From contig NW_027274494.1 in assembly GCF_030028105.1 (NCBI RefSeq), forward strand, positions 1 to 64,000: DNA of 64,000 bases, read 5' to 3'. The position numbers and the translations under genes are program-made. The notes under the pieces were generated by a model. It was given only the letters and a program-made list of their open reading frames with translations, had not been told where the DNA came from and made no database searches. Below, piece after piece: positions 1,595 through 63,128 of this stretch. Within the stretch, counting starts at the first letter, position 1; each line of letters starts with the position of its first letter. The DNA is from Mobula birostris (taxonomy: Eukaryota).

Positions 1595-1711
1595 GTGCGC
1601 ATAAACAAGAGCCGAAAGAGAACATCGGAAATAGATCCTGCCTGAAGATCTGCCTGCTCTGCTTAGTTACGTCCGTCCTCGTCGCGATAGTGGCCGGGCT
1701 CTTGATCTATG
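1595..1711 (+). CDS. Gene A juxtamembrane/TM exon (117 bp, phase 1-1)
   Basis: ctctctacag|GT...TATG|gtgagt; GAHKQEPKENIGNRSCLKICLLCLVTSVLVAIVAGLLIY, basic residues followed by a hydrophobic signal-anchor. Confidence 0.9.
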
Positions 1712-4700
1712 GTGAGTCCAACGGGAACCGGATGGTGTCCGACCATTAGGAAGCGGAAAGGATTGAAGTGCCCGCGTAAAACCTCACAGTGACGCCGACA
1801 CGGTTCTCAATGTCATAACGACATGACCCTCTTCGTAACACTAAGAGGACCGTTACCGTGACGCGGTCACGCCGTAACCGGCCCGCCCCTCAGCGTGACA
1901 ACATCGCTACCCGTACAGCGACACGGGCAGGAACCCGCACCTCCTCGTGACACGCTCATTCGGAAACTGCCGTGACCGTGATACTGACACACCCGTCTCC
2001 GTGACCTGGAAATGCCCGGTTCCGAATAAGGGACCCGCTCTCAAAGTCATATTGGCACATTTCTCACAGTAACACCCACACAGTTTCGCCATGAGTATAC
2101 GACCATAAGACATTCAGACACAGGAGCAGGCTTAGGCCGCTTGGCTCTTCCAGCCTGCTCCGCCATTTGATCATGGAAGATCAATTTCCCTCTGAACCCC
2201 AATCTGCTGCCTCCTCCCCGTATCCCTTCATACACTGACTAATCAAGAATCTATTAACCTCTGCACTAAATAAACCCAATATCGCCCTCTACAGTCCCTT
2301 TGCAATTCTCCCTACGTTTAGAAAATAATCTACGCTTTTACTTCTTGCTTAAAAGTGCCTGAACAGACATTGTATTCCCACATGACACTTCTTGGTCAAT
2401 TCTCCTCACCTATGTAGGTTTTCTATGTCCTCTCCTCTTCCTCTGCAACACCAGCCGCTCTACTTATCTTTGCACTTTCCGCAAACATGGCCAAAACCCT
2501 ATTATTTCCTTCATCTACATTGCTGACATTTTATGTAAAAGGTAGCGGTCTCATCTCAGACCTTCTGGAACACCACCAGTCGTCGGCAGCCAACCAGAGG
2601 TTTCTCCCGTCATTTCATTCCCACTCTTTGTGTCCTGCAAATCAGTCACTGCTCTATCAATTTTTTTTCCTGTAACAACATAGGGTTTTATCCTGTTATT
2701 CAGCCTCATGTGTGGTACATTGTCAATGGACTTCTGAAAATCCAAGTACACAAAATGCATCGATTCCCCTTTGTTTAACCTGAGCCATGTTCCTACAAAG
2801 AATTTCAAGGACTGATCATGCAAGATTTTGATAAATCTCAATCTGTGTAGAAGATGATGAGAGGCATTGAACGTTTGGATAATCGGAGGCTTTTTCCCGG
2901 GGCTGAAATGACTAACACGAGAGGGCACAGCTTTGTGGTGCCGGAAAATAGGTACAGAGGAGATGTCAGGGGCTTTTTTTTTTCACCCAGACAGTGGTGG
3001 GTGTGTATAATAGGCTTCCGGCGAGGTTGGTGGAAGCAGATACGATAGGGTCTTTTAAAAGACTACTGGACAGGTACATTGAGCTTAGAAAAGTAGAGGG
3101 CTATGTGTTACCCGAGATAATTTCTAAAGTAATTTCATTTTCGGCACAACATTGTGGGCCGAGGGCCATATTGTGCTGCAGACTTTCTCTGTTTCTAAGA
3201 TTTTCCTTGATCGAAACTATGCTGACTTCGGCCTAGTTTATCATGGGCCTCCAAGTACGTCGAAAGCACACACTTAATAATCGACTGCAATATCTTGCCA
3301 ACTACAGGGATCGGAGTGACAGGCCAGTGATTTCCTTCCTTCTGCCTATCTCCCTTGTTGAAGGGTGGAGTGTCATCTGCAATTTCCGAGTCTCCGGAAC
3401 CATGGCAGAATCCAATGATCATTGAAGAAGCAATTGTAATGCTCCACAATCTCTTCAGTCACCTCCTTCAGAATCCTGGGTTGTAGACCATCTATTCAAA
3501 ATGTCTTGTCTACCTCATACTTCTCAGTTTCACAAGCACCCTCTCTGTACCAGTGCCACCTTCAGTCACTTCAGCTCCCCGGCAATCTCAAATCTCACGC
3601 ATAATGTTAGTGTTTTTCACATAAATCCTGTTGCGTAATCCTTCTTCAATGCCTTCACCATTTCCCCTTCCCCGTTACTATGTCCCCAGTATCCTTTTCC
3701 AGTGATCCGATATCTACTCTCGGCTCTGCTTTACACTCTATATACCTGAAGAAACGTTTGATATCCTTAGCTTTTTACCTTTGCAGTTTTGTAACTCGAG
3801 CCACAATTATTCTACAACTTACGATCCTATGCCACATCTTTCCAATCATTTTATTCCAGTTTTTACCAACAGAGTCACGCCGCTCCCTGTACACACTTGC
3901 CTGTCTTTTCAATACAATGTCTGTCCTTGGGCGTTAAGCTCCCAGCTGTAATCTTCCTTCTGCCACGACTGAACGATATCCACGACGTCATATATGCAGT
4001 TTTATCTCACCGCTGAGTTTATTTAACCCCTCCAGAACAGCTCCAGAAAATCTGTTACTAAGGATTTTGTTTCACCTCGGGTTCAGTTACAGACAGTCCC
4101 ATTTGTACAGTTCGTAGCTCCTCCAGAAGAGATCTCAATGATCCGGAATTAGAAATCCTTGCCCCCGACAGCAATTAGTCAGGCACCGACATAACACTCA
4201 CCCTGACACCTTCACGCATCTCACCATGACACCGACACGCCCATCACCATAACTCAGAAATGTACCTGATAGTGACACCGACACGCCCATCACCATAACT
4301 CAGAAATGTACCTCATAGTGACACCGACACGCCCATCACCATAACTCAGAAATGTACCTCATAGTGACACCGACACGCCCATCACCATAACTCAGAAATG
4401 TACCTCATAGTGACACCGACTCACCTCTCACCGTGACAACCGACACGCTCTTCACAGGAACACATAAACAGCCTTTACCGTAACACTGATACGCGCCTCT
4501 CCACAACACGGAAACGGTTCTCGCCTTGACGCCGTCACAAATCCCACCGCGACAGTGACAGGCTTTTGACCGGAACATGGACACACTCATCAACGTGACA
4601 TCGACACATCCCTCAATATAACACCGACACGCCACTCACCTTGACACCAACACACCATTCACCTTCTCTCTCTCTCAGTGTTACAGATCCGTCAGTCTCT

Positions 4701-7375
4701 GATCGCCTCCGATCAAAAGTACCAGAGACTTTGGGAACAACATCAGGAGATGAACAGGACCCAGTGCCAATGTCCACTGCAAATTCACCAGCCGAACTCA
4801 ACCCTTGAACCAATGACATCAGAGGATTCCCGCGAGGACATCCCCCAGGATAAATGTCTCAATAATGTTTCCGTCCCCAGCAACAACGTCTCCATCCTCG
4901 AACACAAATTGTTTAACCTCCAAAGCAGCTACTCCATCCTAGTAAACAAATCGATCGTCCTGGAAAGCAACCTCTCCGTCCTGAGCACCGATCTCTCTGT
5001 TCAGCATCAAAAGCAAACCGATCTCCGCCGAATTTTCAATTACCTCGAAATGCAGTGTAGAGCTCTGAACGAAACCAAGGCTCAAATCTGCCATCTGCTG
5101 ACGAGGAGGAAAGGTGAGATAACAGCCGCCATTCACCAGTTCCTAATCACGGGATAGAAAGAGGAATCTATACCTTGTGGCTGGTCTCGGGAATGTTCAT
5201 TATGAGGATGCGATTGGACCGACACCCGTAGGGTTACACCGAGTGTGTGTTATGGGACGGTGGGGTGGAGCGCCACCTAGTGTCCTACATGGAGAATGTG
5301 TGATGGGGAGGTGTGGAGGGAGAGACACCAAGTATCTGTACCCGGGAGTGCGTGATGCGGTGCTCCGGAGACAGATTAGCTCAGGGTCTGACGCCGGCAG
5401 TGCGTCATTCCGCGGTTGAAACCGTGTGTTTCTGATAGACCGTGCGGGGGAGCTTCTCACTGTCTGACCCTGGGTATGTGTGATATGACAGTGTGGATGG
5501 AGATTCGGCCTGTTACTGATGCCGAGTGTCTGTGATGGGACGGCGCGGAGTGAGCTTCACTCCGTGTCTGACACCGGGTGTGTGTGTTGGAAGGGTCAGG
5601 GGGAGTTTCATTCTGTGTTTGAACGCCGGAATGGGTCATGGGACCGGTGTGGAGGGAGTTTCATTCTGTATTTGACACTGCGTGAGTGTGATGGGACGGT
5701 GTGAAGGGATTTTTTCCCCCAGCGGAAGTAATGAAGGAGGATTCACTGTTCCGTGTTCATGATTTCCAGATCAAGCGTGTTCCCGGAATTGGATCAGAAA
5801 TGAAGACCTTTGTTACTTCATATCCACATTTGAAATATCTTACGACGGAGCGAAACAGAATTGTTCAAACTCTGACTCAAAGCTTCTTGAAATAAATTCA
5901 AATGAGGAAGAGGTATGTGTCAGAAGACATATCCACATCAGAGTGGAGCTTCTTCCACACCGTCCCATCACATATTCCGGGGTCAGACACAGAGTGAAGC
6001 TCCCTCCACATTATCCCATCACATACTCCCGGGGTCAGACACAGAGCGTCTCTTCCTCCACACTGTCCTTTCGCACACTCCCGGGGGCAAACGCAGAGTG
6101 AAGCTCCCTCCACACCGTCCCATCGTATATTCCCGGGGCCGACACAGAGTAAATCTCCCTCCACACCGTCCCATAGCACACTCCTGGGGCAGACACTCAT
6201 TGAAGATCCCTCCATACCGTCCCATCGCACACTCCTGGGGCAGACACTGAGTGAAGATCCCTCCACTCCGTCTCATCACACTCGCCGGCGGTCAGAAAGT
6301 GAGTGACGCTCCTTAAATTGTGCTCATTTTGAATCATTAATGACAGCCATTTAATTTCACAGAATTTTATTAACAAAGCTGTCGGCGACCAAAATAATTC
6401 ATACTGGATTGGAAAATGCAAAGCCGGGTGAGATTAGGGTTCATGTAGGTTTTTGAAGAGAGAATGGGTCGTGAGTTTTATTTGGGGACTGATACGGGCT
6501 GCGAGAAGGGAGTGAACGTTGGGATTATATTGGGTAATGTCATGGGGCTGTGGGGTGAGAAAGGGGAGTGCGAGTATTTCGGGGAAAAAGACGCGGCCTT
6601 CAGATAGAAAGTGGATCAGGGGAAGTATTTTGGGGAATCAGACCGGCCTGTGGGGAGAGTGGAGCTGTGGGATTAGTTTGCAGATTGACACGGTTCCGTG
6701 GGAAGACGTTCAGAGTGTGGGAGTATCCTAGGGACTAACACGGGACCGTGGGGAGAGGCGGGCTTTGAGAGTAATGGGGAAGTAACAGGACTGTAGGGGG
6801 AAAATGGATCGTGGGGTTATTTTGAGGACTCCCGGAGCTCTGTGGGGAGAGAGTTGAGCAAGGGATCAATCTGGGGCTGACACAGGGCTGCAGAGAATGA
6901 GTCAGTGAGTGTTTTGGGAACTCGTACAGGTATGTGGGGAGAGAGGAGGTTAGTGAGAGTGTTTTGAGAATTGGTAGAGTTATGTGGGGAAAGATTGAGT
7001 CAGTGGGAGTATTGTGTGGACTGACACCGCTCGGTGAGGAAAGATTGAGTCAGTGGGAGTAGTTTCGGAACTGACACCGGTCGGTGAGGACAGATTGAGT
7101 CAGTGGGAGTAGTTTGGAGACTGACACAGGACTGTCTGCTGGAATTGTGTTGCTCCTTTTGAAATTGTTTACCCCTCCTTGACAGGAAGGTGGCCTCTAA
7201 TGTCGTGTACAAGGTGAACTCTGGAAAGTTCGAATGCAGTGAGTGTAAATCCAGTTGGCTTCACAATTGCAAAAATGATCAGCACCGTTTCATCTGTGAG
7301 AAGACGGCACCCGTGTGCCTGGATATTCCTGAAAAGATCCGGAGACTTTGTCAAAAGCCTGTCGGCCCTACTTGA
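1595..7375 (+). CDS. Gene A: type II transmembrane C-type lectin-like receptor with atypical CTLD (5 exons in window; cytoplasmic exon(s) presumably upstream of window)
   Basis: Exons 1595-1711, 4679-5113, 5770-5912, 6363-6427 and 7186-7375 have AG/GT boundaries and compatible phases, and splice into one open frame of about 316 aa ending TGA at 7375. Confidence 0.9.
1780..2095. repeat. Degenerate ~23-bp repeat (gtgacaccgacacgcccctcacc-like) of the TM-neck intron, 5' part
   Basis: Recurrent gtgac/ccgaca units; the same repeat fills the TM-neck intron of genes B, C and D. Confidence 0.7.
2105..4180 (-). mobile_element. Degenerate CR1 LINE (3' tail to ORF1/ORF2 fragments), host of a nested CR1
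   Basis: Minus-strand VYLDFQK..D.VPH (2551-2928) and NHWPVTPIPVVGKIL (3195-3449); reverse-complement 3' tail near 2105. Confidence 0.75.
2830..3196 (+). mobile_element. 5'-truncated CR1 3' end nested in opposite orientation, 8-bp TSD AAGATTTT
   Basis: TRGHS...FF..R...N.LP..VEA..I.SFK.LD C-terminal motif and tttctctgtttct tail; AAGATTTT at 2822-2829 and 3197-3204. Confidence 0.75.
4227..4420. repeat. Near-perfect 46-bp tandem repeat x4 within the ~23-bp intron repeat (4185-4660)
   Basis: tgacaccgacacgcccatcaccataactcagaaatgtacctcatag starts at 4227, 4273, 4319, 4365, with a partial copy at 4411. Confidence 0.95.
4679..5113 (+). CDS. Gene A coiled-coil neck exon (435 bp, phase 1-1)
   Basis: tctctcag|TG...AAAG|gtgag; VLQIRQS...heptads NNVSILE/SNLSVLS...NETKAQICHLLTRRK; many NxS/T sequons. 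Confidence 0.9.
5240..5705 (+). repeat. 52-bp minisatellite array (G-strand), neck-CTLD1 intron of gene A
   Basis: Degenerate copies of gggagtgtgtgatgggacggtgtggagggagattcactctgtgtctgacccc. Confidence 0.85.
5770..5912 (+). CDS. Gene A CTLD exon 1 (143 bp, phase 1-0)
   Basis: ttccag|AT...GAG|gtatgt; DQACSRNWIRNEDLCYFISTFEISYDGAKQNCSNSDSKLLEINSNEEE (C-x3-W-x6-CY, C1, LLxI..EE). Confidence 0.93.
5930..6300 (-). repeat. 52-bp minisatellite array (opposite orientation), CTLD1-CTLD2 intron of gene A
   Basis: cacactcccggggtcagacacagagtgaagctccctccacaccgtcccatca units. Confidence 0.9.
6363..6427 (+). CDS. Gene A CTLD exon 2 (65 bp, phase 0-2)
   Basis: ttcacag|AAT...GG|gtgag; NFINKAVGDQNNSYWIGKCKAG. 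Confidence 0.92.
6430..7135. repeat. G-rich ~50-bp degenerate repeat of the CTLD2-CTLD3 intron
   Basis: agattgagtcagtgggagta recurs at 50-bp spacing (6992, 7042, 7092); related repeat at 29720-30660, 42700-42950 and 59190-59560. Confidence 0.7.
7186..7375 (+). CDS. Gene A CTLD exon 3 plus Cys-containing C-terminal tail
   Basis: gacag|G AAG...TGA; KVASNVVYKVNSGKFECSECKSSWLHNCKNDQHRFICEKTAPVCLDIPEKIRRLCQKPVGPT*. Confidence 0.92.
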
Positions 7376-15000: not shown

Positions 15001-15172
15001 CGCACGAACTCCACCCACACTTCCCGCAACAACCTGCTCTCGGTTCCTCTTTTCATCGGCGATTCATCTGCTGTTTGCAGGTTTCGGTCTGACTCCCTTA
15101 TCATCACGGGTTTCTTCAGACCAAGGTTGCTTCCCCTTTCTGAGTTCAGAGACACAGAGAATCGCCGACAGG

Positions 15173-15237
15173 AAGGACGACAGCAGAATTACCTGCATAT
15201 GAAGTTCACAAAACGGACTCACTGTCTCCTTCCCGAG
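15173..15237 (+). pseudogene. Gene B cytoplasmic exon remnant (reconstructs as MDDSENYLHMKFTKTDSLSPSR)
   Basis: Aligns to the intact exon 63062-63128; donor G|gtgagt at 15238. Confidence 0.8.
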
Positions 15238-15279: not shown

Positions 15280-15995
15280 GTCTGACCCCAAGGGCTTGTT
15301 AATGAGACAGTGTGGACGCAGCGTCACTTTTCGTCTGACCCTGGGGCTTGTGATTTTTCAGTGCGGAGGGAGCTTGACTTTGGCTCTCACTCCGGCATTC
15401 TGTGAAGAGACGGTCTTCAGGGAGTTGCAATCAATTCTGAACCCGAGGGTGTGTGATGTGACAGTGTGGAAGGAGCCTCAACACATGTCTGACCCCGGGA
15501 GTGTGTAATGGGACGGTGTAGAGGGTGCTTCACTCTCTGTCTAACCCCGGGAGTGTGTGGAGGGAGATTCAATGTGTGTCTGAACCCGGAGTGTGTGATG
15601 GGACGGTGTGGGGAGAGATTCACTCTGTGTCTGACCCCGGGAGTGTGTGATGGGACGGTGTAGAGGGTGCTTCATTCTCTGTCTAACCCCGGGAGTGTGT
15701 GGAGGGAGATTCACTCTGTGTCTGACCCGGGAGTGTGTGATGGGACGGTGTGGGGGGAGCTTCTCTCTGTGTCTGACCCCGGGATTGTGTGATGCGGCGG
15801 TGTGGAGGGACCTTCACTCTGTGTCTAACACGGGAGTGTGTGATGGGACGGTGTGGAGGGAGCTTCATTCTGTGTCTGACTACGGGAGTATCTAATGCGA
15901 CAGTGTGGGTTGAATTCACTCTGTGTCTGACCCCGGAAGTGTGTGATGAGATGATAAGACGGTTTGAAGGGAGCTTCACTCTGTGTCTCACCCGG
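15280..15995 (+). repeat. 52-bp minisatellite array after exon 1 of gene B
   Basis: Repeating gggagtgtgtgatgggacggtgtggaggg...tctgacccc. Confidence 0.9.
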
Positions 15996-16079
15996 GAGTT
16001 TGTGGCCTCCACTCTCCTCCATTCCCTCCCTTTTCCCACAGCACACAATTCCTTCTCTATGATTCTTAACTCAGGTAGT

Positions 16080-20721: not shown

Positions 20722-20835
20722 ACGACATGGGCAGTGAACGATCCACATGGAGAGACCGATCAGACTCAAGCATATGGCTAATCGGCGTTTTAACAGCGAC
20801 TCTCATTATCACGGGTATCTGCTGGAGGATTCATG
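20722..20835 (+). pseudogene. Gene B TM exon (114 bp, phase 1-1), second TM type
   Basis: tcgacag|AC...CATG|gtgagt; DDMGSERSTWRDRSDSSIWLIGVLTATLIITGICWRIH; followed by the ~23-bp TM-neck repeat (20880-21450). Confidence 0.8.
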
Positions 20836-23342: not shown

Positions 23343-23378
23343 AGTCGTCGTTTCGGGCCGAGATCCTTCGTCAGGCCG
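23343..23378 (-). ncRNA. Hammerhead ribozyme motif with mutated cleavage triplet (GAC)
   Basis: ggc-CTGACGA-aggatctcggccc-GAAA-cGAC-gact. Confidence 0.55.
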
Positions 23379-26892: not shown

Positions 26893-27270
26893 TATCACAG
26901 ATTCGTCACTCTTTGATCACCTTCGACCGAGAGCACCAGAAACATTGTGAACAATACCAGGAGATGAACAGTACCCAGCGCCAGTGTGGACTGCAGGTAA
27001 ATGAATTGAACTCAACCCTTGAATACAATATAACTGAGAATTCCCGTCTGGTTGTCTCCCGAAGCACCTGTCTCAGGAATATTTCTGTCCTCAGTTGAAA
27101 CCTCTCCATCCTCGAAAGCGAATTTTTCGTAAACGAAAATACAAACTCCGCCCTGAACTCCAAACTGACACTAACTGATCTCCATCAACAGATCTCAGAC
27201 CTCGAAATGAAGTACCATACTCTCAGCGAAGTCAAGGCTCAAATCTGTCAACTGCTGTTCAGCAGAAAAA
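26893..27270 (+). pseudogene. Gene B neck exon (378 bp) with in-frame stop
   Basis: ctcag|TA TCA CAG ATT CGT...KAQICQLLFSRK|gtgagt; TGA at 27096-27098. Confidence 0.9.
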
Positions 27271-28663: not shown

Positions 28664-28806
28664 AGCATACGTGTTCCGAGGAGTGGATCCAAAATAAAGA
28701 CCAATGTTATTACGTATCCATGTTTGATACATCTTTCAACACAGCGGTGCAGGAATGTTCAAACCGCAATGCAAGGCTGCTTGAAATCAAATCAAGGGAT
28801 GAAGCG
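28664..28806 (+). pseudogene. Gene B CTLD exon 1 (143 bp)
   Basis: HTCSEEWIQNKDQCYYVSMFDTSFNTAVQECSNRNARLLEIKSRDEA|gtatgt. Confidence 0.9.
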
Positions 28807-29645: not shown

Positions 29646-29710
29646 AGTTTTCTATCCCAGGAACTTGTGTACCGATACCGTGCATACTGGATTGGAAAAT
29701 GCGAAGACGG
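29646..29710 (+). pseudogene. Gene B CTLD exon 2 (65 bp)
   Basis: SFLSQELVYRYRAYWIGKCEDG|gtgag. Confidence 0.9.
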
Positions 29711-30743: not shown

Positions 30744-30933
30744 GAATGTGGGCCCGAGTCTCCTGCACAGCGTGTTCTCTAGATCTTCCGTCTGTTTAGA
30801 TTGCAACTCGCATCTAGGGAACGACCGTTGCAATCGTGATTGGCGTTTCATCTACGAAAAGTCGGCACCTTTGTTTCCGGATGTTCCTGAAAAGATTAAG
30901 GATCTCTGTCGACAGCCACTGGAGGCGAAGTGA
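30744..30933 (+). pseudogene. Gene B CTLD exon 3
   Basis: NVGPSLLHSVFSRSSVCLDCNSHLGNDRCNRDWRFIYEKSAPLFPDVPEKIKDLCRQPLEAK*. Confidence 0.9.
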
Positions 30934-42415: not shown

Positions 42416-42614
42416 TCACTTGATTGAAGTCGGCCCGTCAGGCTGTTGACAGAGATCCTGGATCTCTTCAGGAATATCCGGGTATAAATATGCAGTCTTC
42501 TCGCAGATGAATCCATATTTACTTTTGCAATTGTAAATCCATCCGTACGAGTCGCACTTACTGCAGGTGGGCGATCCATGGGACATCTTGTAGAGAAGAT
42601 AAGAGGCCACATTC
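42416..42614 (-). CDS. Gene C CTLD exon 3
   Basis: NVASYLLYKMSHGSPTCSKCDSYGWIYNCKSKYGFICEKTAYLYPDIPEEIQDLCQQPDGPTSIK*. Confidence 0.9.
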
Positions 42615-45600
42615 CTATCAAAGAGGGTTAGACAATTTCAACAGAGACACAGCAGACCCAGCAGACAACCGGAGAACGTGGCCAAGCTCATCCCTCTAAC
42701 CTGCGCTCTCCCCACAGCCCCTTGTCAGACTCTGAACTAATCCCATGATACCGCGCTCTCCGTACAGAGCCAGCTCCAACGCCGTACGAATCCCACTACA
42801 GTGCTGTCCCATACAATCCTGAGTCAGTTCCTAAATTAATCCCACCGCACCAGCCTCTCCCGACAAGCCAGTATCAGTCAACAAACTAATCTCAATTTCA
42901 AACGCTCTCCCCACATCCTCGTGTCACTCGCAAACCACCGACCTGCAAGAGTCCAAACCTCACCCGTCTCTGCATTTTCCAATCCAGTAAGATCTGTCTG
43001 CATAGCCGATAGAGCTGGAAACAAAATCCTGTGAAATTAAATCCCTTCGATTAATGTGCATGTAACGCGCTGGGAAATGTTCCACTACTAATGTAATGGT
43101 TTCTCTGCAGCAGTAGTGTGTTTGGGTTATGACCAGAGATAACGGGGGCCTTGGGAATGTGCGGCGTCCCATGATGGGAGGAGGTTTCTTTCTTGTGTGT
43201 CCGACAGCGAAGGTTCCTCGGGCTTTATTTCAAGAAAAGATACAGATAGGAAATGCCACAACGGGGAAGTCGTAGACTGCAGGCCTGAGCGGACTTGGAA
43301 TGGTGTCGGGAGTCGACGACACCCCGGGGGAAATCGATAGAGAACGAACGGACGGGAAGGCAGTAAGATACAACAAGCGTTTTAGACAGATTAGTTAAAA
43401 TGGGCCTTTTTTCTCCTTGTTTTCTACACTAACCCTACAGTCAAATGAAGAAATATAAAGCTCACAGGTTAAATTGCATATGGTGTACTTCTCGTTACTT
43501 TGTGCGAGCAATTTGTAACCGGGGAACTCATCACGCAGCATCCATACAAATGATATTTCACAGCATGGACGGGCCGTGGACAGTCTCGCCTCGACCCCGC
43601 CCAGACAAACGCATGATGGTCGAACCTGAGGGTTACATTTGGCCTCTCTTCATGCCTGAACAGGAGAGCATGTGAAGCGTTGGTACAAAGAGGGAATTGC
43701 CCAGTCTCGGACCCCTTGAGTGTGCGATGGGACCATTGTGGAGGGAGCTTCACTCTGTGTCTGACCCCGGGAGTGTGTGAAGGGACGGTGTCGAGGAAGT
43801 TCCATTCTATGTCTAACCCCGGGAATGAATGATGGGACGGTGTGCAGGGAATTTCACTCTACGTCTGATCTCCGGAGTATGTGATGGGACAGTGTGGAAG
43901 GAGCTTCACTCTCTGTCTGACCCCAGGAGTGTGTGATGGGAAATTGTGGTCGGAGCCTCACTCTGTGTCTGCCCCCGGGAGTGTGTGAAGCGACGGTGTC
44001 GAGGGCGTTGCACTCTACGTCTGACCTCGGGAGTGTGTTGTGGGACGGTTTGGAGAGAGCTTCACTTTGTGACTGACCCTGGGACTGTGTGATGGGACGG
44101 TGTGAAGGGAAATTCGCTGAGTGTCTCATCCCGGGAGTGTGTGATGGGACGGTGTGGAGGGAAATTCACTCTGTGTCTGACTCCTGGAATGTGTGATTTG
44201 ACGGTGTCGAGGGAGCATCACTCTGTGTCTGATCCCAGGAGTCTGTAATGGGACAGTGTCGTGGGAGCTTAACTCTGTGTTGGACTTCGGCTGTGTGTAA
44301 TGCGACGATGTGGAGGGAGCTTCACATTGTGTCTGACCTCGGGAGTGTGTGATGGGACGGTGTGGAGGGAGCTTCGCTCTGTGTCTGACCTCGAGAGTGT
44401 GTGATGGGACGGTGTGGAGGGAGCTTCACTCTGTGTCGGACCCCGGGAGTGTGTGATGGGACGATGTGGAGAGAGCTTCACTCTCTGGCTGACCGCGAGT
44501 GTGTGTGATGGGACAGTGTGGAAGGACATTCACCGAGTCTTCCACGGGAGTGTGTGATGGTACGCTGTGGACTGATTTACTGCATGTTAGAACCCGGGAG
44601 TATGTGATTGTTATTGGTATCTCTTCTCACGATGTGACACATACCTTTTCCTCCTTTGAATTTATTTCGAGGAGTCTTGCATCAAGGTCTGAGCAATATT
44701 CCCTCGCTTCATCATAAGATTTCCCCCACGTGGATATGAAATAACACCGGTCTTTATTTCTCTGCCAGTACTGGGGACACGTTTGCCCTGCAAATCAGGA
44801 AATAGTGAATAATTTGCCAGAACGCTCATTTCACCAGCAGGGCTCGGAGAAAGGCAACCTCTCTCTACTCCGTCACATCACAGATCCCGGAATCAGACAC
44901 ACAGTGAAGTACCCTCCGCAACGTCTTTTCACACAGTCCCGGTGTCAGTAACAGAGTGAAGCTGCCTCCACACCGTCGCATCACACACTCCCGTGGTCAA
45001 TTACAGCGGCATGCTTACTCCATACTGTGCCATTGTACAATCCCATGGTTAAAAAAAAAGTGTAGATTCCTAGAAACCGTAACATCAAAGGATTTCCGGG
45101 TCAGGCAGGGAGAGAATCTCCCTCCAAATGTCGCAGTAAGCACAGCAGGTGACGCTGCTGTCATACGGTCCCATCACACACTCCCGGTATCAGACACAGA
45201 GTGAAGCTCCCTCTACACTGTTTCATCACACACTCCGGGCATCGGACATGGTGTGAATTTCCCTCCACACCGTCCGATCCCGCACTCCCAGGGTCAGACA
45301 TAGAGTGAATCTCCCTCCACGCCGTTCCATCACAAACTTCCTGGGTCAGACATAGTGTCATGTTACTCCACGCCGTCCCATTGCACAATCCCAAGGTAAA
45401 ACACAGTGTAGATCCTTTGAAACAGCAACATCACTGATTTCCGGGTCAGACACAGAGGGAATCACCCCGCACACCGTCCCATCACACAGCTCTCCGCCTC
45501 CTCCCTCCCCGTCTCTCACCGCCGCGGATGAGGAGCAAGGGGAAGCGGGGGACGTTATCTCACCTCTTCTGCTGGTGAAGTATTGGCAAATCTGAGCTTT

Positions 45601-47197
45601 GTTTTCGGAGATGGTTCTGTACTTCGTTTTGAGCTGCTGGAATTGATGACGGAGATCGATTTGCGTTCGATTCAGCTCTGAGAGATCGGAGTTGAGGACG
45701 GTAATGTTGTTTTCGAGTTTGGAGAGGTTGTTGTTGAGGACGGAAATATTCTTCAGACAGTTTCTCTGGGAGAGATCCAGGCGGGAATTCTCAGATGTCC
45801 TGGATTTAAGGGTTGAGTTCAACTCACGGACTTGCTGCTGACATTGGCGTTGGGTCCTGTTCATCTCCTGATGTTGTTCCCAAAGTCTCCGGTAGTTTCG
45901 GTCGGAGGTGATCGGAGACTGACGAGTCCGTGATACTGAGGGTGATAGTAAGGAGTGTGTCAGTGACACGGTGTGAGGTGTGTCTGTGTCAGAGTGAGGG
46001 GTGTGTCGGTCACAGTGATGGGTCTCACTCTGACACGGTGTGAGAAATGTCGGCGTGACGCAGAGGGGTGCATCAGTGTCACGGAGAGAGTTGTGTCATT
46101 GTCACAGTGAGTGAAGTGTCCGTGTCACGGTGAAGGGACGGCAAATGTTACGGTCTGGAGTGTGTAAGAGTCACAGTGAGGAGAGTGTCGGTGCCACGGT
46201 GACGGGACTGTCGGTGTTACAGTCAGGGGCGTGATGATGTCACAGTGTGGAGCGTGCATGAGTCACAGTGAGGGGCGTGACGCTGTCACTCTGAGAGCAG
46301 TGTCAGTGACAGTGTGGGGTGTGTAAGTGTCACGGTAAGGGAAGTGCCGGTGTAATAGTTTGAGCTTGACAGTGTCACGGTGCGGGGTATGTGTCGTGTC
46401 ACGGTGAGGGATATGTGTCGGTTTCACGGTGAGTAATGTATCGGTGTCACTGTGCTCGCAGTCTCAGTGTCAAGTTGTGGGGAGTATCGGTGTCACAGTG
46501 AGGGAACAGTCAATGTCACGGTGCGGAGAGCTTCGGGATCACGGTGTTGGAAGTGCCAATGTCGCAGTGAGTGGTGTGGTGGTGTCACAGAGAGGGGATT
46601 GCCGGTGTCACAGTGATGTGAGTGTCGCTATCACGCAGATTGCTCTGTCACTGTTACAGTGAACGGTGTGTCGGTGTGACAATGAGCGGTTTATCAGTGT
46701 TACGGAAAGGGTTGTGTCGGTGTCACCGTGAGTGAAGTGTCGGTGTTACGGTGGAGGGCGTGTCAGTGTTTCTATGTGCAGTGTATAAGTGTCACGGTGA
46801 AGAGAGAGGCGGTGTCACAGTGAGGGAAGTGTCCGTGTCACAGTGAGGGGGAGTGTCAGTATCACGGTGTGGGCCGTGAGAATTTCACGGTGTGGGGACG
46901 GCCGGTGTCACGGTGAAGGGTGTTACTGTATCCTTGTGAGGGGAGACTCAGTCTTATGATGTGGGGTGTGTCGGTGTCACTGTGGGGGGCGTGTCGGTGT
47001 CACGGTGAGGTTATGCGCTAACACTTCATCCCACTCTGTTTGTTTATGGTCTGACTCCTGCCGGAGCTCGTTCGACTCACCATGGATCGAGAGGCCGGCC
47101 ACTATCGCGACGAGGATGGATGTAACGAGGCAGAGTAGGCAGATCTTATGGTACGCTCTATTTCCGATGTTTTCTTTCGACTCTTGTTTATGCGGAC
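42416..47197 (-). CDS. Gene C: type II C-type lectin-like receptor, open from TM exon to stop; no cognate cytoplasmic exon found upstream
   Basis: Exons 47197-47081, 45935-45564, 44787-44645, 43028-42964 and 42614-42416 have canonical AG/GT and splice in frame (about 298 aa). Confidence 0.85.
42964..43028 (-). CDS. Gene C CTLD exon 2 (65 bp)
   Basis: ttcacag|DFVSSSIGYADRSYWIGKCRDG|gtgag. Confidence 0.9.
43061..43637 (+). mobile_element. Solo LTR (same family as 10171-10770)
   Basis: TGTAAC...GTTACA termini; shared tgtaacgcgc, cactactaa and aatggtttctctgcag blocks; no clear TSD. Confidence 0.7.
43715..44600 (+). repeat. 52-bp array, gene C CTLD1-CTLD2 intron
   Basis: G-strand units on +, which are C-strand on the gene sense strand. 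Confidence 0.9.
44645..44787 (-). CDS. Gene C CTLD exon 1 (143 bp)
   Basis: tttgcag|GQTCPQYWQRNKDRCYFISTWGKSYDEAREYCSDLDARLLEINSKEEK|gtatgt. Confidence 0.92.
44870..45490 (-). repeat. 52-bp array, gene C neck-CTLD1 intron
   Basis: C-strand units on +, opposite to 43715-44600. Confidence 0.85.
45564..45935 (-). CDS. Gene C neck exon (372 bp)
   Basis: VSRTRQSPITSDRNYRRLWEQHQEMNRTQRQCQQQVRELNSTL...NKAQICQYFTSRR|gtgag. Confidence 0.9.
45950..47010. repeat. ~23-bp degenerate repeat, gene C TM-neck intron
   Basis: gtgtcggtgtcacggtgaggg units. Confidence 0.85.
47081..47197 (-). CDS. Gene C TM exon (117 bp)
   Basis: GPHKQESKENIGNRAYHKICLLCLVTSILVAIVAGLSIH|gtgagt; close paralogue of the gene A TM exon. 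Confidence 0.9.

Positions 47198-48391: not shown

Positions 48392-48394
<3 letters not shown>

Positions 48395-48448
<54 letters not shown>
48395..48448. repeat. (GA)n microsatellite expanded inside CR1 ORF2
   Basis: About 26 GA units in place of the short aaaggaaggagaaag-type sequence of the 35190 copy. Confidence 0.95.
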
Positions 48449-48449
<1 letters not shown>

Positions 48450-49325: not shown

Positions 49326-49606
49326 GATATCTCAGGATATTTAGCCGTGACTTTGATCCAGAATGCCGGCAGAGATGTTATATCAAACATACTTTTCAGC
49401 CCGCCGTCATTTGTAAGCTTGAGGAGTTGATCTCCTTCCCGCGCTGACATGCATGTCGCGCGGGTAATGACGTCGTGTGCTTTCAAGCTCCTCAGTGACC
49501 GAGACAGTAAATGAGGACAGGCTCGGATGAGTCCTGTCGCTAAATTATATCGTTTTCTCCTGGCCCTGTAGCGCATGCTTTGCGGCCCGGTGATTGGGGA
49601 CCACTG
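49326..49606 (-). mobile_element. hAT (Buster/Charlie-like) non-autonomous fragment, one terminus only
   Basis: Minus-strand terminus cagtggtccccaa; transposase C-terminal fragment LTNDGGLKSMFDITSLPAFWIKVTAKYPEI; near-TSD ccctaat/ccttaat in the CR1 host. Confidence 0.7.
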
Positions 49607-50499
49607 CCTTAATCTGAGGAAAGACATTCTTGCCGGAGTGGGTGTACAAAGAAGGTTCACCAGATTGATTCCTGGTATGGCAGAACTTTCATATGATGAA
49701 CGACTGGATCGACTAGGCTTATACTCGCCGGAATTTAGAAGATTGAGGGGGAGATCTTATCGAAACGTATAAAATTCTAAAGGGATTTCACAGGCTAGAT
49801 GCAGGAAGATTGTTCCCGCTGTTGGGGAAGTCCAGAACGAGGGGTCACAGTTTGAGGATAAAGGGGAAGCCTTTTAGGACCAAGATTAGGAAAAACTTCT
49901 TCACACAGAGAGTGGTGAATCTGTGAATTCTCTGCCACAGGAAACAGTTGAGGCCAGTTCATTGGCTCTATTAAGAGGGAGTTAGATATGGCCCTTGTGG
50001 CTAAAGTGATCAGGGGGTATGGAGAGAAGGCTGGTACAGGTTTCTGAGTTAGATGATCAGCCATGATCATACTGAATGGCGGTACAGGCTCGAAGGGCCG
50101 AAGGGCCTACTCCTGCACCTATTTTCTATGTTTCCATGTTTCACTCCTGTCATCCTTTTTTTATTCACATAATTGAAGAATGCATTGGGGTTTTCCTTTA
50201 CCCTACTCGCCAAGGCCTTCTTATGCACGCTTCTTGCTCTTCTCAGCCCCTTCTTAAGCTCCTTTCTTGTTTCCATATATTCCTCAATTGACCCATCTGA
50301 TCGTTGCTTCCTCAACCACATGTATGCTGCCTTCGTCCACCTAACTAGATTTTCCACCTCACTTGTCACCCATGGTTCCTCCACCCTACCATTCTTTATC
50401 TTCCTCACCGGGACAAATTTATCCCTAACATCCTGCAAGAGATCTCTAAACATCGACCACATGTCCATGGTACTTTTCCGTCTACTCTACCCCATTCCA

Positions 50500-53051: not shown

Positions 53052-53204
53052 CTCTTCTGCTGGTCAACAATTCACAGATTTGAGCCTTGGTTTCGTTCAC
53101 AGCTTTGTACTTCGTTTCCATCTCGTTGATCTCGGACTGAAGAATTGAGTTCAACTCATGGCAGTTTCGGTCGAGGGTGGTCTGAGACTGACGAATCTGT
53201 GATA
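53052..53204 (-). pseudogene. Gene D: orphan short neck exon (153 bp, in frame, splice sites intact)
   Basis: ctctctcag|VSQIRQSQTTLDRNCHELNSILQSEINEMETKYKAVNETKAQICELLTSRR|gtgagg; ~23-bp intron repeat upstream (53230-54170); no TM or CTLD exons of its own seen. Confidence 0.8.
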
Positions 53205-54480: not shown

Positions 54481-54554
54481 CTGCTCCGAAGCTAAGCAGG
54501 CTCAGGCCTGGTCAGTACTTGGATGGGTGACCGCCTGAGACCTCAGCCTTTTTT
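54481..54554 (+). pseudogene. 5S rRNA-derived fragment (pseudogene or SINE3 head)
   Basis: gaagctaagcaggctcaggcctggtcagtacttggatgggtgaccgcctg closely matches vertebrate 5S GAAGCTAAGCAGGGTCGGGCCTGGTTAGTACTTGGATGGGAGACCGCCTG; T-run follows. Confidence 0.85.
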
Positions 54555-55076: not shown

Positions 55077-55218
55077 AACAGACGTGTTGCCAGGGATGGG
55101 TCAACAGGAGAGGTGCTTGTTATTTCTTATCACGGTGGCAAAATCTCACGCTGCAGCGAAGAAAAAATGTTCGAAGGGTGGCTCAAAGCTGCTGGAAATT
55201 AGCTCAATCGAGGAAGAG
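55077..55218 (+). pseudogene. Gene E: isolated CTLD exon 1 with a 1-bp deletion (142 bp)
   Basis: EQTCCQGWVNRRGACYFLS / VAKSHAAAKKKCSKGGSKLLEISSIEEE|gtatgt. Confidence 0.88.
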
Positions 55219-55249
55219 GTATGTGACAGAGCACGTGAGAATGGCCACA

Positions 55250-56845
55250 AACTACCCGGGGCCTGACAGAGTGAAGCTCCCTCCAAAACGTCCCTTCACA
55301 CGCTCCCGGGGCCAGACACTAATGCAGCTCCTTCCACACCGTCCTATCACACGCTTCAGGGATCACTCAGAGTGAAGCTCCCGCCACACCGTCCCATTGC
55401 ATACACCCGGGGTCGGAGACAGAGTAAAGCTCCCTCTACACCGTTCCATCATACCCTCCCAGGGTCAAACAGAGAGGGAAGCTCCCTCCACACTGTCCCA
55501 TCGCACAATCACGGGATCAGACACAGAGTTAAGCCCCCTCTACACCGACCCATTACACACTTCTGGGATCAGACACAGAGTGAAGCTCCCACTATTCCGT
55601 CCCAGCAGAGACTGCCGAGGTCAGACACAGAGTACATCTCCCCACACACTCACCCATCACACACTGCCAGGGACAGACACAGAGTGAAACTTTTTTTTTT
55701 TCCGCACAGTCCGATCGCACAATCACAGGATCAGAAACAGAGTGAAGCTACCCCACACCAACGCATCACACACTCCAGGGGTCAGACAAATTGTGAAGCT
55801 CCCTTCACACCGTCCCACCACAACATCCCGGGAAAAAAAAAGACACAGAGTGGAAATCCCTCCACACTGTCCTATCGCACACCCCCGTGGTCAGACACAG
55901 AGTGAAGCTCCCTGAACACCGCCCCATCACACATTCCCGTGGTAGTACAGACTGAAGCTCCCTCCACACCGTCACATCACATACTCCCAGTGTCATAAAG
56001 AGTGAAATTCCGCCCACACCGTCGCATCACACACTCGCGGGGTCAGACACAGAGTGAATCTCCCTCCACACCATCCCATCACACACTCCCGGTGTTATAA
56101 AGAGTGAATCTCCGCCCACACCGTCCCATCACACATCCTGGGATCAGACACAGAACGAAGCCACTGCACGTCATCCCATCAAACACTGCCGGATCAGACA
56201 GTGAGTCAGTTCCCTCTACACCGTCCCGTAACACACTCCCGGGGACGGACAAGTAGTCAAGCTCCCTCCCCACCGTCCCATCACACCATCCCGGGAAAAA
56301 GACACAGAGTAGAAATCCCTCCACACTGTCCCATCGCAATATTACTGGATCAGATACAGAGTGAATCCTCCTCCACACCGTCCCATCACACACTCCCGGG
56401 GTGAAACGCAGAGTGGAGCTCCCTCTACACCGTCTCATCACACACTCCCGGGGTCAGACACAACGTGACGCTCTCTCCACACCGTCCCATCACACCCTCC
56501 CAGTGTCATACAGAGTGAAGCTTCCTCCACACCGTCCCATCACACTCTCCCGGTGTCATACAGAGTGAAGCTTCCTCCACACCGTCCCATCACACCCTCC
56601 CGGTGTCATACAGAGTGAAGCTTCCTCCACACCGTCTCATCACACATACCTGGATCAGACTCAGATTGAAGCTGCTACACATCGCCCCATCACATACTGC
56701 CGGTGTCGGAAGTGAGTGAAGCTCCCTCCCCACCGTCCCATTACACACTCACCGGGTCATACGGAGTGAAGCTCCCTCCACGCCGTCTCATGACACATCG
56801 CCGGACTCAGCCGCAGAGTGAAGCTCCCTGCACACCATCACATCA
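55250..56845 (-). repeat. 52-bp array downstream of the gene E exon
   Basis: C-strand units. Confidence 0.9.
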
Positions 56846-57241
56846 CCTTCTCAATTCGAGTCTCGGGCACCGCTATTTTTTGATTGACGGTGTCAAGCTG
56901 TGACTTGATATCATTGAGTTGCTCGTTTATATCTCTTTGTAATCCCCGTATCTCTTCCAGAGGTTTTATCATGTTCGCCGCTTCACCTGAACGAGGCCCA
57001 TCGTCAGCCTGGCGAGCACGCGTTCGAGTAGTAGAGACACGTCTTGTACCTCCCTCGTCCATAGGCTCCGCACTGATTCCTTTTTTATCTCCATTCTTTT
57101 TCTCCGTTCTTGCCCCCCTTATCAATTCAGATATTTTCGGAAGATCTTATATTTGATAAATGAACGCGGCAATATATGCGTTTTTTTTCCGGAGTAGCTG
57201 TTCATTCGAGCTGCCATTTTGGACGATGACGTCACTGGAAG
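56845..57241 (-). mobile_element. L1-type LINE 5' end (5' UTR plus ORF1 coiled-coil start), 3'-truncated
   Basis: 5' cttccagtgacgtcatcgtccaaaatggcagc (CRE and YY1-like AAAATGGC); ORF ...EIRGLQRDINEQLNDIKSQLDTVNQKIAVPETRIEKV. Confidence 0.65.
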
Positions 57242-57563
57242 ATCCTCACTGTTGTCTTTAATTGATCGAACCCATCTTGAGTCTGAATATGTGTTTCTCT
57301 CTGTCTGTAACTGTCCTGTAAAAAAGTAAACACGCTGCAGAGAATACATAACACGAGCTGGTCACCAGAGCTACGAGGCAATTCTGCAGACAGTAGAAAT
57401 TAACACAGAGCCAAACAGTCAGTCTCGGTTCCCTCTTTCTCCTTAAAGTGACAGTCCACAGACAATATGAACCCTAGGGGTAGATAGCACACCACAATCT
57501 GAAACGCCCGCCCCCACCCCTCAACACGGTGCCACTGACTCTCCCCCTGACCGTCACTCTCAG

Positions 57564-59186
57564 TGTTACAGACTCGTCAGTCTATGATCATCTGTGAATG
57601 AAACTTTGCGAACAACGTCAGGAGGTGAACAGGACCCAGCGCCTATATCGTGAACAGATTCATGAGGTGAACTCAACCCTGGAATCCAGAACTTCCGAGA
57701 ACTCCCTCCTGAATCTCCCCCAGTAACAGTTCCTGAGCATGGTGGTGTGAGTCCCGAGGCTCCTGACCTCCTTCCTGATGGTTGAGGGGTAACAGCTGTT
57801 CCTGAACTTAGTCTGTAAATCATGAGGCCAGTTATCTATAGTGAGCGATTCTGCGAAAACTGGATGGCTGCAGGGTAATCTCCCTTTCGTGAGTGTACTC
57901 GCGACTATTTATATCAGAAACAACATGAAGACTCCCTCTGGGTTCAAAGTTTCTCGGTCAGCAAACCCCAATATCGTCACTCACTGTTCTCTGTTCCCCA
58001 TTTACAGAACAGGTGTGTTTCCAGGGGTGGGTCAACAGGAAACACATATTTCCTGTTTCCTGGAAATAATAAGCTTGTTATTTCATATCGACGGTGGCAA
58101 AATCTCACGCTGGAGCGAAGCAAAAATATTCGAAGTGTGGTTGAAAGCTGCTGGAAATGAACTCAATCGAGGAAAAGGTATGTGCCATACCACGTGAGGA
58201 TGTCCGCAAACTGCCCGGGGCCTGACAGAGCGATCCTCCCTCCACACCGTCCCATCACACACTCCCGGAGTGAGACAGAAAGTGACACTCGCTCCACACC
58301 GTCCCATCATAAACTTCATGGTTCATATAGAGTCACGTTCCCTCCATATCGTCCCATCGCACACCCACGAGGCGTGACAGAGAAAATCCCTCCACACACT
58401 CCCGGGATAAGACAAATAGTAAAGCTCCCTCCATATCGTCCCATCACACACCCACGAGGTGTGACAGAGAAACTTCCTCCACACTTTCCCATCACACACT
58501 TGCGCTGTCAGATAAATAGTAACGCTCCCTCCACAGCGTCCCATCACACACTCCCGGGATAAGACAAATAGTAAAGCTCCCTCCACAGCGTCCCATCACA
58601 CTCTCCCGGGATCAGACAAATAGTAAAGCTCCCTCCTCAGCGTCCCATCACACACTCGCAGGGTCAGGCACGGAGCGAATCTCCCTCCACACCGTCCCAT
58701 TAGACACTCAACGGGTCATGCAGAGTGAAGCTCCCACACTCCATCCCATGACACAACCCTGGGCTCAGACGCAGAGTGAATCGCCCTCTACACCGTCGCA
58801 CTACAAACTCCCGGGGTCATACACAGAGTGATGCTCGCTACAGACGGCCTCATCGTACACTCCCGGGAGAGACATAGATTGAAACTCCCTCCACACCGTC
58901 CCATCATACACTCCCGGGTTCAGACACAGAGTGAATCTCCCTCCACAGCGTCCCATCACACACTCCCGGGGTCAGACACAGAGTGAATCTCCCTCCACAC
59001 CGCCCCATCACACACCACCGGGTAGTAACTGTGCGAAATTCCCTCCGCCCTATTGCGTTATACACTTCCAGGGTCCAACGATAACGTTCCATGCAGAGTG
59101 GTAACGAAAGAAAATGTATTTACCAGGATTTTGTTTCCAAAACTTAGATGGAGCGGACGTTACTGGATTGGAAAATGCCTATGCAT
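57564..59186 (+). pseudogene. Gene F remnant: truncated neck (57564-~57735), CTLD exon 1 with insertion and stops (58008-58177), frameshifted CTLD exon 2 (59127-59186)
   Basis: VLQTRQSMIICE*...; EQVCFQGWVNR[insert]ACYFISTVAKSHAG...; DFVSKT...YWIGKC; exon 3 absent and CR1 in its place. Confidence 0.85.
58220..59070 (-). repeat. 52-bp array, gene F CTLD1-CTLD2 intron
   Basis: C-strand units. Confidence 0.88.
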
Positions 59187-59559
59187 GTGAGGTTCTCAGT
59201 GACTGACGGCTGTGTGGAGAGGGGGGCAGTGGGTTCAGTTTGGATTCTTACAGGGTGCTGTGGTGAGGGCATGGGCAGTGCGAGTAGTTTGGGGACTGAC
59301 TTGGGGCTCGACCGGGAGAGTGGGCAAGGTGATAGTATGGGGACTGACACAGGGCTCTGGGGAGAGAGCGGGACGATGCCTTTTCTTTTGGGACTGAGAT
59401 GGGGCTGCGGGGAGATAGTGCAGCAGTGCGATTATTCTTCTGACTGATACAGGGTGTGAGGTGGAGAGTGGGACAGTGGGACTAGTATGGTGACTGACAC
59501 TTCGATGCGGGAAAAGAATGGGAGACTGCGCTTAGTGTGGTGTCCGTCAGAGGCATGAG

Positions 59560-61010: not shown

Positions 61011-61039
61011 TTTTCATTGACAAAGAACATGAAACAACA

Positions 61040-61625
61040 GGACGGTGTGGAGGAAGCTTCACTCTGTGTCTGACCCCGGGAGTGTGTGATGGAACGGTGT
61101 GGAGGGAGCTTCACTCTGTGTCTGACCCCGGGAGTGTGTAATGGGACGGTGTGGAGGGAGCATAACTCTGTGCCTGACCCCGGGAGCTTGTGGTGGGACG
61201 ATGTGGAGGGAGCTTCACTCTGTGTCTGACCCCGGGAGTGTGTGATGGGACGGTGTGGAGGGAGCTTCACTCTGTGTCTGACCCCGGGAGTGTGTAATGG
61301 GACGGTGTGGAGGGAGCATAACTCTGCGCCTGACCCCGGGAGTTTGTGGTGGGACGATGTGGAGGGAGCTTCACTCTGTGTCTGACCTCGGGAGTCTGCG
61401 ATGGGACGGTGTGGAGGGAGATTCACTCTGTGTCTGACCCCGGGAGTGTGTGATGGGACGGTGTGGAGGGAGATTCACTCTGTGTCTGACCCCGAGAATG
61501 CGTGATGGGACGGTGTGGAAGGAGCTTCACTCTGTGTCTGACCCCTGGAGTTTTTGGTGTGACGGTGTGGAGGGAGATTCACTCTGTGCCTGTCCCCGGG
61601 AGCGTGTGATCCGCTGGTGTGGAGG
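61040..61625 (+). repeat. 52-bp array with a 156-bp (3-unit) higher-order repeat
   Basis: Variant cataactctg at 61161 and 61317. Confidence 0.92.
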
Positions 61626-62170
61626 GTTTGGTTGCAGGGAAGAGAGAAGACACGACCGAAGGAGCGGTGATGGCGGTTAATAGGAGATTTGGAGAGGGGA
61701 GGGTGCAGTACAGGGATGCCCCGGGCAAAACGGTGTCTAATCTCGCCCCCACCCCCATCGCCGGAAACGCGTTAGGGACGGGACCGAAAATGCAGTGAGG
61801 ATCCTTGTTGGGGTGAAATGGCTGGGCGGGTCGGGATATCTCTGGGTCACTGCGACGGGTGTGATGGGGGTGGGGGTGTTAGAGAGGAGAATCGGTGCGG
61901 GGCAGGTGGGTGAGAGAGTAGGGAAAGGTAATGGGGAAGGTGGGAGAGAATGAAGTGGAGAGAAGGGAGAGACGGGATGAGGCGGAGAGAAGAGAGGACG
62001 GTAGGAGAAAATGGGAGAGAGAGATGGGGAGATGGAGAGAGTGATGGGGAAAGAGGAAGAGCTGAGAGAGAAAGAGTGTGTGTGTTTGTGGGTGACAGAA
62101 ACGAGAGATAGAGAGGGGGGGGGAGAATGTCACGGAATAAGGAAGGAAAGAGAGAGTGCGAAAGAAAGAG

Positions 62171-63061
62171 TGCGTCACTGGACGAGGAAGTCGAGGACCG
62201 AGTTTCGAGGGGAGCTGCTCACCTCACTCCGAGGGAGGGGACTCATTCACCTCGGTGGATGCTGGGGCTTTGTCCCGGGGCCGTGGTTTCTCCCAGGCAG
62301 AGCGTCTGAAGCCCCGGCGATAGTCCGGAGCTGTGTGAGCGTCCGACGCGCAAATCAGTGCCCAATCACGGGGTGCAAATCTCCAGGACAAGAGAGGCTT
62401 TTATGAGTGACACAAATCCCTCCGACATTCCCTCCTTCCTCATTCCTGCCCTCCTTCTCGACTTCCCTCCTTCCTTTCCTTTCCCCCCTCCCCTTCCGAT
62501 GCCTCTCTGCTTCCATCGTCAGCATTCCTTCTCCCTCATCCCTCCCCTTCCTGCACTCCTTTCCTTTGTACATCGCTCACTTTCTCCTCCCTATCCTCGT
62601 CTCCGCTCCCTCTGATTCCATCTCTGTCAAGCTCTCTTCACCCCGTTCGCTCGCCCTCTCTTTTCTCCCTCTTCCTCCCAATATCTCCAAATCTCCCCCT
62701 CTCTATTCTCCCCTTTCTCCTTCCCTCCTTTCCTCATCTCTATCGCTCTCAGTTCCCTCTCTCCAAAGACTCCCTGTCACCCGCTTCACTCTCTCCACTA
62801 AACACCAAACTTCCCCTCTCTCTCTTCGTCCCCCCACTTTCTCCCCACTTTTACTACTCTTCCCCACCACTCTAAACACTTCCCCAAAGCCCTCATCCTC
62901 TCTCCTCCCCGCACTTCCTCCACTTGTTCTCGGTTCCTCTCCTTATCAACTGCTCATCTGTTGTTTGTTGGTGTCTGTTTGACTCCGTTGTCAACACGGG
63001 CTTCCTCTGACAACGGTCGCTTCCCCTCTTGAGCTCAGAGACGCAGGGAATCCTCGACAGG
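62171..63061 (+). promoter_or_regulatory. Putative promoter/5' UTR of gene G
   Basis: Paralogous to 14233-15172; tgcgtcactgga, ggggccgtggtttctc, gtgcaaat, cttcccct (PU.1-like on the minus strand). Confidence 0.55.
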
Positions 63062-63128
63062 ATGGGCGACAGCGAGACTTACATGAATGTGAAGTTCACA
63101 AAAACGGATGCACGGTCTCCTTCCCCAG
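63062..63128 (+). CDS. Gene G first coding (cytoplasmic) exon, MGDSETYMNVKFTKTDARSPSP; gene continues beyond the window
   Basis: aggATGg Kozak context; phase-1 donor G|gtgaga; homologous to the gene B exon remnant. Confidence 0.8.

Follow-up and report, generated by a model that had tools for sequence, protein, structure and literature searches.

Whether this locus is a cartilaginous-fish analogue of the NK complex, with receptor variability focused on a single loop, is the question raised by the earlier note, which read the 64,000-nucleotide stretch analysed here (hereafter the window) as a birth-and-death cluster of seven receptor units. An inventory by six-frame motif search, self-BLAST and tblastn with 194 family proteins bore out the seven units and their mixed orientation, A(+), B(+), C(-), D(-), E(+), F(+) and G(+), and assigned all of them to a single family, that of type II C-type-lectin-like (CTLD) receptors. 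Besides family exons, the search with the family proteins found only mobile-element remnants in the window, and Rfam returned no match. A weak TM-like match at 57321-57437(-), presumably resembling the 5' end of a LINE, was not recovered by the 194 family proteins and was rejected. Splice signals were regular, with AG acceptors at 15/15 exons of units A, B and C and GT donors at 12/12 internal ones.

Units A and C, previously described as the two open genes, have an uninterrupted reading frame between the TM exon and the stop codon, but neither has its first exon within the window. Unit A (plus strand) comprises a TM exon with the neutral TM of subfamily A (1595..1711), a long, coiled-coil-like stalk exon with a neck Cys (4679..5113, 91% to model P0014) and three CTLD exons, namely c1 (5770..5912), c2 (6363..6427, carrying the alpha2-beta2 linker and YWIGKC) and c3 (7186..7375, 97% to M. 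birostris P0014), the last of which encodes the hairpin, a CxxC..C insert, FICEK, the tail helix and the stop. Its first exon is expected before base 1, and the tail of its counterpart P0014 is short and lacks Tyr. Unit C (minus strand) comprises a TM exon (47081..47197), a long stalk exon (45564..45935), c1 (44645..44787), c2 (42964..43028) and c3 (42416..42614); the 17 kb upstream of it in the window yielded no cytoplasmic first exon on the minus strand. The TM exons of A and C are conserved, as had been noted, at 79% amino-acid identity.

Unit B (plus strand) had been called a complete pseudogene, a description that proved too strong. Within this single unit, a TM exon of a different type (W-type, ending CWRIH; 20722..20835; 100% to P0007), only 21% identical to that of A or C and with an internal Met at 20727 that would give a short, Tyr-less tail, is combined with a stalk exon (26893..27270) and the B CTLD exons c1 (28664..28806), c2 (29646..29710) and c3 (30744..30933). 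The only in-frame stop, a TGA at 27096 in the stalk exon, lies inside a candidate in-frame intron of 195 nt (26997..27191, plus strand, with a GT donor, CTAAC and a CAG acceptor) that could bypass it; exactly this segment is absent from M. birostris models P0006/P0007, and P0089 has a similar junction. Because the TGA sits in this candidate spliceable segment, we consider B probably disabled rather than a clear pseudogene, chiefly through a Cys>Tyr change in c3 at a position where Cys is kept in 151/152 family CTLDs. The conservation claimed for YWIGKC, FICEK and DIPE likewise has an exception in B, which reads FIYEK and DVPE instead of FICEK and DIPE.

Among the supposed three fragments, E and F are broken duplicates, with E represented by a frameshifted c1 exon (55077..55219, plus strand, 89% to F) and F (57564..59190, plus strand) by a broken half-stalk (57564-57745), c1 (58008-58177) and c2 from 59128, but D is an open, intact short-stalk exon (53052..53204, minus strand) in phase with the TM exon of C. 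Such a D-type stalk is joined to a C-type TM exon in six M. birostris models, and P0073 is identical across D. The one new 5' end reported, G, is a coding first exon with a YMNV motif (63062..63128, plus strand), near-identical to the N-terminus of P0017, an ITIM-bearing model, but it is accompanied by a second, broken first exon upstream of B (15081..15237, plus strand; start codon lost, frame shifted), which lies in a region homologous to the 5' region of G. Homologous introns of these units are filled by 52-bp and 23-bp satellites, as exemplified by the 52-bp array at 43710..44571; further 52-bp arrays occupy homologous introns at 5939-6277, 15436-16004, 28842-29563, 55266-56846, 58393-59022 and 63145-63998, and one additional satellite array lies at 61040-61626. 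With intact, broken and partial units intermixed (four or five of the seven being broken or partial), hundreds of paralogues in related rays, pseudogenes and fragments beside the tandem copies, and clades specific to single lineages, the birth-and-death reading stands.

Taxonomically, the family appears to be a matter of rays. An alignment search with the three last exons returned 58 proteins, every one of which belongs to Mobula birostris, M. hypostoma, Hypanus sabinus or Hemitrygon akajei, and a CTLD profile search gave 31 long proteins and, at ordinary length, 277 clusters, of which 120/120 listed came from the same four species. Exhaustive searching of 1.84 billion representatives produced 48 matches (39 at E<=1e-10), of which those inspected carry the family signature; six weak multi-stretch matches were left out, and 18 CTLDs from this search fall inside the ray tree, a few of them on long branches. 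No non-ray protein is named among the listed matches to the ray loop exon. Units A, B and C have counterparts in M. birostris at 93-97% identity, which suggests that the window derives from a Mobula-like ray, and the NCBI automatic models in Mobula, Hypanus and Hemitrygon are the family itself, under best-hit labels such as 'OLR1-like', 'CLEC9A-like', 'KLRB1-like' and 'uncharacterized'. The family is undescribed in the literature searched, which lay mostly outside subscription journals and included the available portions of PMC10751288 and PMC6795676, and the word 'lectin' is absent from the main text of the manta genome and Squalomix preprints.

Structurally, an AF2 model of P0001, whose CTLD is ~93% identical to that of C (pLDDT 79.8, loop blocks 76-84), predicts a CTLD fold in which 11 residues separate beta2 (147-151) from a hairpin (163-168/171-176), after which come a coil with Cys on its flanks, beta5 and a helix at the C-terminus. 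A second AF2 model was weaker (pLDDT 72; 4/5 models under 50) and, owing to this lower quality, was used for strand order only, which is the same, with a span between beta2 and the next strand of 11-12 residues in the two predicted models. As a reference, the long loop region of CTLDs is usually ~25-35 residues long. Ligand specificity is governed by this region, which normally forms part of the upper lobe (PMC7618208, available text). The model matched group V CTLDs with near-tied scores, by Foldseek LOX-1 and CLEC9A (E ~3e-8) and by VIA LLT1 (Z 14.0, rmsd 2.7, 100 aligned) and, near-tied, CLEC12A (13.5), and the ray domain is ~6-12 residues shorter over the aligned range. The ESM Atlas gave generic Lectin_C clusters with KLRG1/KLRB1C names (0.90-0.91; first match with <170 shared features). 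WIGL, a long loop region and the canonical six-Cys pattern are absent, with WIGKC in the place of WIGL, and Ca2+/sugar motifs are practically absent from the loop region (EPN 1/152, QPD 0/152, WxD 2/152). These counts come from a pattern extraction that recovered CTLDs from 166/203 sequences (37 dropped), 152 of them remaining below 97% identity; the pattern requires the loop Cys, and Cys conservation was therefore taken from a 53-sequence alignment, in which the four loop Cys, the alpha1 Cys and the FIC Cys are invariant. Four Cys lie between WIG and FIC and one in the tail, and the neck Cys is present in 151/160. The distance between WIGKC and CxxC is 19 in 148/152, while the insert that runs from CxxC to C can have anything from 4 to 12 residues. 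A homodimer prediction scored 0.26 against a mark of 0.32 and is given no weight. From the predicted models we infer that the long loop would have been shortened, rather than replaced wholesale, with a new variable insert before beta5; a rebuilt upper lobe of this kind would be an unusual CTLD architecture.

From a signalling perspective, a TM was detected in 161/194 family proteins, the database proteins being automatic gene models, and 99/161 of these carry a motif matching what we take to be the ITIM consensus. The A/C-type TM accounts for 137/161, 97 with an ITIM-consensus motif and 8 with a basic residue, and the B-type (W-type) TM for 24/161, of which 22 have an Arg near the outer end and 2 an ITIM; this Arg is only three residues short of the end of the exon and could be outside the bilayer. 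In the non-redundant set (TM in 101/149), an ITIM occurs in 2/19 W-type versus 56/78 proteins of the other type, by a Fisher test that ignores relatedness, with median tails of 12 versus 99 residues. The 20 W-type labels are dispersed over the CTLD tree, requiring 16 changes against a mean of 18.5 and a minimum of 14 after shuffling. Same-species W/ITIM pairs share CTLDs at 95%, 95% and 89% identity, and where two models of one species are almost the same over the 60 residues ahead of the CTLD, 5/15 such pairs have CTLDs only 41-50% identical. Many ray models also have extra cytoplasmic repeats. Two TMs occur in 8/161 models, which are clearly chimeric, no normal receptor being possible with them; some tail-ectodomain pairings and 'no ITIM' calls in this repetitive cluster may therefore be artefacts. 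As judged from these models, similar ectodomains apparently occur both in forms with an ITIM and in forms with a charged TM, as in paired receptors; activating rodent NKR-P1 likewise have a TM Arg (PMC4041007, available text). For expression, matches to 42300-43700 at 80% likeness include one contig each from X5 and X10 that skips exactly the 349-nt c2-c3 intron (GT..AG, minus strand), which the DNA runs X1 and X6 retain, and the loose contig ends at the c2 start resemble, by eye, the c1 end. This indicates that spliced family transcripts exist, not necessarily those of gene C, in what is one study of guessed RNA status, no RNA run being on record among those listed by the run search.

How far the variability is confined to the loop bears directly on function, and here the earlier claim did not hold, although the three WIGKC-FICEK loop sequences it quoted are exact. 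A, B and C have the same residue at 3/33 non-Cys positions of the loop, 1/13 of the linker (exon c2), 14/44 of c1 and 7/22 of the tail. The three CTLDs fall in separate clades, each with dasyatid members, so the quoted contrast is largely old subfamily divergence. Positive selection confined to the loop as an MHC-binding face, as in Ly49, is in our judgement quite improbable, even though loop sites evolve faster than other non-Cys sites (rate 1.69 vs 1.09, permutation p<1e-4), same-species sister pairs at >=80% identity (n=19 of 46 cherries) differ more in the loop than elsewhere (0.109 vs 0.067, p=8e-4; the excess in cross-species pairs, n=7, is not significant, p=0.17), and C and P0012 differ at 9/37 loop sites. 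Against it, the linker is equally variable (mean site rates: linker 1.65, loop 1.57, tail 1.14, c1 0.98, motifs 0.26-0.41), the 30 fastest sites include 14 in the loop but 16 elsewhere (c1 6, linker 5, tail 5), the loop holds 33-39% of close-pair differences, and between A and Hemitrygon P0018, across ray families, the loop is 32/36 identical versus 37/47 for c1 and 6/13 for the linker. Variation is enriched in the loop without being exclusive to it. The alpha2-beta2 linker would be a specificity loop in Ly49, but mention of it in that role was not found in the available part of PMC3972465, and it carries no weight here as evidence. Evolutionarily, the selection analysis covered the full coding DNA of three units (A, B and C, one of them possibly a pseudogene), with pairwise loop omega values of 0.93, 1.23 and 1.57 and pN/pS intervals that span 1. 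A codon model gave omega 1.27 for the loop versus 0.71 for the rest (p=0.001), but the loop value does not differ significantly from 1 (p=0.23). Neither of the refuting outcomes named in the earlier note was seen, loop omega being far from low and divergence uneven. Loop and linker grouped post hoc gave 1.43 versus 0.66 elsewhere (p=1e-6; different from 1, p=0.055), and site tests (M2a vs M1a) were not significant (p=0.17 and 0.67). The diversifying selection proposed earlier thus survives as a loop omega above that of the rest, not as a significant or loop-specific omega>1; positive selection on the loop is suggested, not established, and the variable patches at omega ~1 to 1.5 may reflect either diversifying selection or relaxed constraint.

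Relaxed constraint is the core of another reading, in which satellite-driven amplification is mostly neutral and most copies are redundant or dying. The whole-gene omega of 0.79, the c1-c3 exons of A and C (71-74% identical) being no more alike than the flanking non-coding DNA (69-84%), the share of broken or partial units and the 52-bp arrays in homologous introns all fit it, but we find it improbable given that Cys and motifs are kept across 53 models, that omega is 0.66 outside the variable patches, that subfamily-specific loops persist across ray families and that spliced contigs exist. Alternatively, the receptors could be myeloid pattern-recognition or scavenger receptors (Dectin-1/LOX-1/CLEC9A-like) with microbial or damage ligands rather than MHC, to which the best sequence and Foldseek matches (LOX-1, CLEC9A), the basic tendency of the loops and an exon 1 acidic stretch before YxxV in 69/161 models, placed like what we take to be the hemITAM consensus, all point. 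This appears unlikely, since NK and myeloid CTLD scores are near-tied, and a family of hundreds of copies divided into ITIM and Arg forms is more in keeping with Ly49/NKR-P1. As a whole, we lean, with slightly better than even confidence, towards leukocyte-type CTLD receptors of type II topology that form a large tandem family, with a remodelled surface and paired signalling. Under this explanation, the myliobatiform family would evolve via duplication, inversion, exon-module swapping and decay, and each member would bind a protein ligand independently of calcium, using a remodelled surface to which the beta3-beta4 hairpin, the alpha2-beta2 linker and the putative Cys-stapled insert ahead of beta5 contribute. 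ITIM forms would inhibit through SHP-type phosphatases, short-tailed forms with the outer TM Arg (B) would activate via an FcRgamma-type adaptor, and short-tailed neutral forms (A) would be partner chains or ligands. Direct support extends to the exon layout, the CTLD fold in models, three old subfamilies A/B/C, the spliced contigs and the two TM types. More tentatively, and somewhat short of an even chance, stingrays and devil rays may possess a several-hundred-gene paired NK-type lectin system of TM-Arg activating, multi-ITIM inhibitory and signal-less chains, with a near-loopless CTLD bearing a disulfide-stapled variable insert, and with modules recombined, possibly by splicing one 5' cassette to different CTLDs.

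The NK-complex analogy is strengthened, as an analogy, by the exon layout, fold, ITIMs and TM-Arg forms. Type II TM, stalk and a single C-terminal CTLD form the arrangement of group V, and the exon order (cytoplasm, TM, stalk, three CTLD exons) is that of Klrb1 and Dectin-1-cluster genes (PMC4041007, PMC3322459, in the parts available). Among named KLR/CLEC genes, scores are near-tied to many CTLDs, and the tree comprises ray-family CTLDs without vertebrate outgroups. With NKR-P1 (KLRB1) and Ly49 (KLRA) the rays share type II topology, six exons, tandem birth-and-death, ITIM versus TM-Arg forms and swapping of signalling and ectodomain exons (PMC4041007, PMC3210942, available text), and by this analogy the ray family may work like them. 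Unlike them, the rays have WIGKC rather than WIGL, a ~11-residue span from beta2 to the next strand, extra Cys, a C-terminal helix with a conserved Cys and tandem ITIM exons, and the likeness is one of sequence and predicted models. The Dectin-1 cluster (LOX-1, CLEC9A, CLEC12A) and CLEC2 (LLT1, CD69), the best sequence and structure matches, have in common with the rays a CTLD free of Ca motifs and the neck Cys, but ray sequence similarity to them mostly ends at WIG, besides the shorter domain. The cichlid cKLR cluster is likewise a fish lineage-specific tandem array of TM-stalk-CTLD genes without one-to-one NKC orthology (PMC3322459, available text); it is, however, teleost, and the named loop-exon matches listed for the rays include no such non-ray protein. 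What is of more interest than loop variability is thus a very large ray CTLD family with a predicted rebuilt upper lobe and what look like paired-type signalling modules, which offers candidates for pathogen or missing-self recognition in the oldest MHC-bearing lineage and a test of whether systems like the NK complex are ancestral or have arisen anew more than once. In the available text of the whale shark genome paper, NK-cluster lectin orthologues (CD69, KLRC) are reported as lacking in cartilaginous fishes (PMC8455134). As a separate observation, the river stingray draft, in its available text, has lectin terms enriched among contracted families (PMC10787021), which points the opposite way to the large ray CTLD family.

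Among the automatic gene models of database family proteins, the groups P0001/P0046/P0047, P0136/P0173/P0183 and P0157/P0163 are near-identical over the 60 residues preceding the CTLD, with the CTLDs themselves just 41–50% identical, a combination for which annotation chimeras, exon shuffling and alternative cassette splicing are candidate causes. Reading through from the short stalk exon of unit D (53052–53204, minus strand) to the TM exon of unit C (47081–47197, minus strand) has a counterpart in six two-TM M. birostris models; alternatively, the D stalk exon could be spliced directly onto the CTLD exons of C. No TM exon belonging to D was found within the window. Within the stalk exon of unit B lies a candidate in-frame intron (26997–27191), the removal of which would eliminate the premature stop. 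Its junction recurs in models P0006 and P0007, with a similar one in P0089, and the candidate intron is a possible source of stalk-length variation.

Between the units are several copies of a long interspersed element, 86–94% identical and in both orientations (17208–25488, 33417–36626 and 48033–50145), which are possible substrates for unequal crossing over or inversion. The insert at 56850–57500 (minus strand), between the frameshifted exon of unit E and the broken unit F, resembles a LINE-1-type element at its 5′ end, and model P0112 has the order insert, F, G (G being a coding first exon) as in the window. A short segment at 54485–54540, similar to part of 5S rRNA, scored below the Rfam gathering threshold; it adjoins a 70-bp repeat near the apparent D/E inversion boundary.

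In units A, B and C, the C-terminal helix of the CTLD tail carries a near-invariant Cys, as does the stalk end (the neck Cys), and the two could act as a stalk-to-tail or interchain staple. Models P0018, P0037 and P0097 have an early Arg in a TM otherwise of the A/C type, making them another candidate activating type, beside that with the B-type TM.
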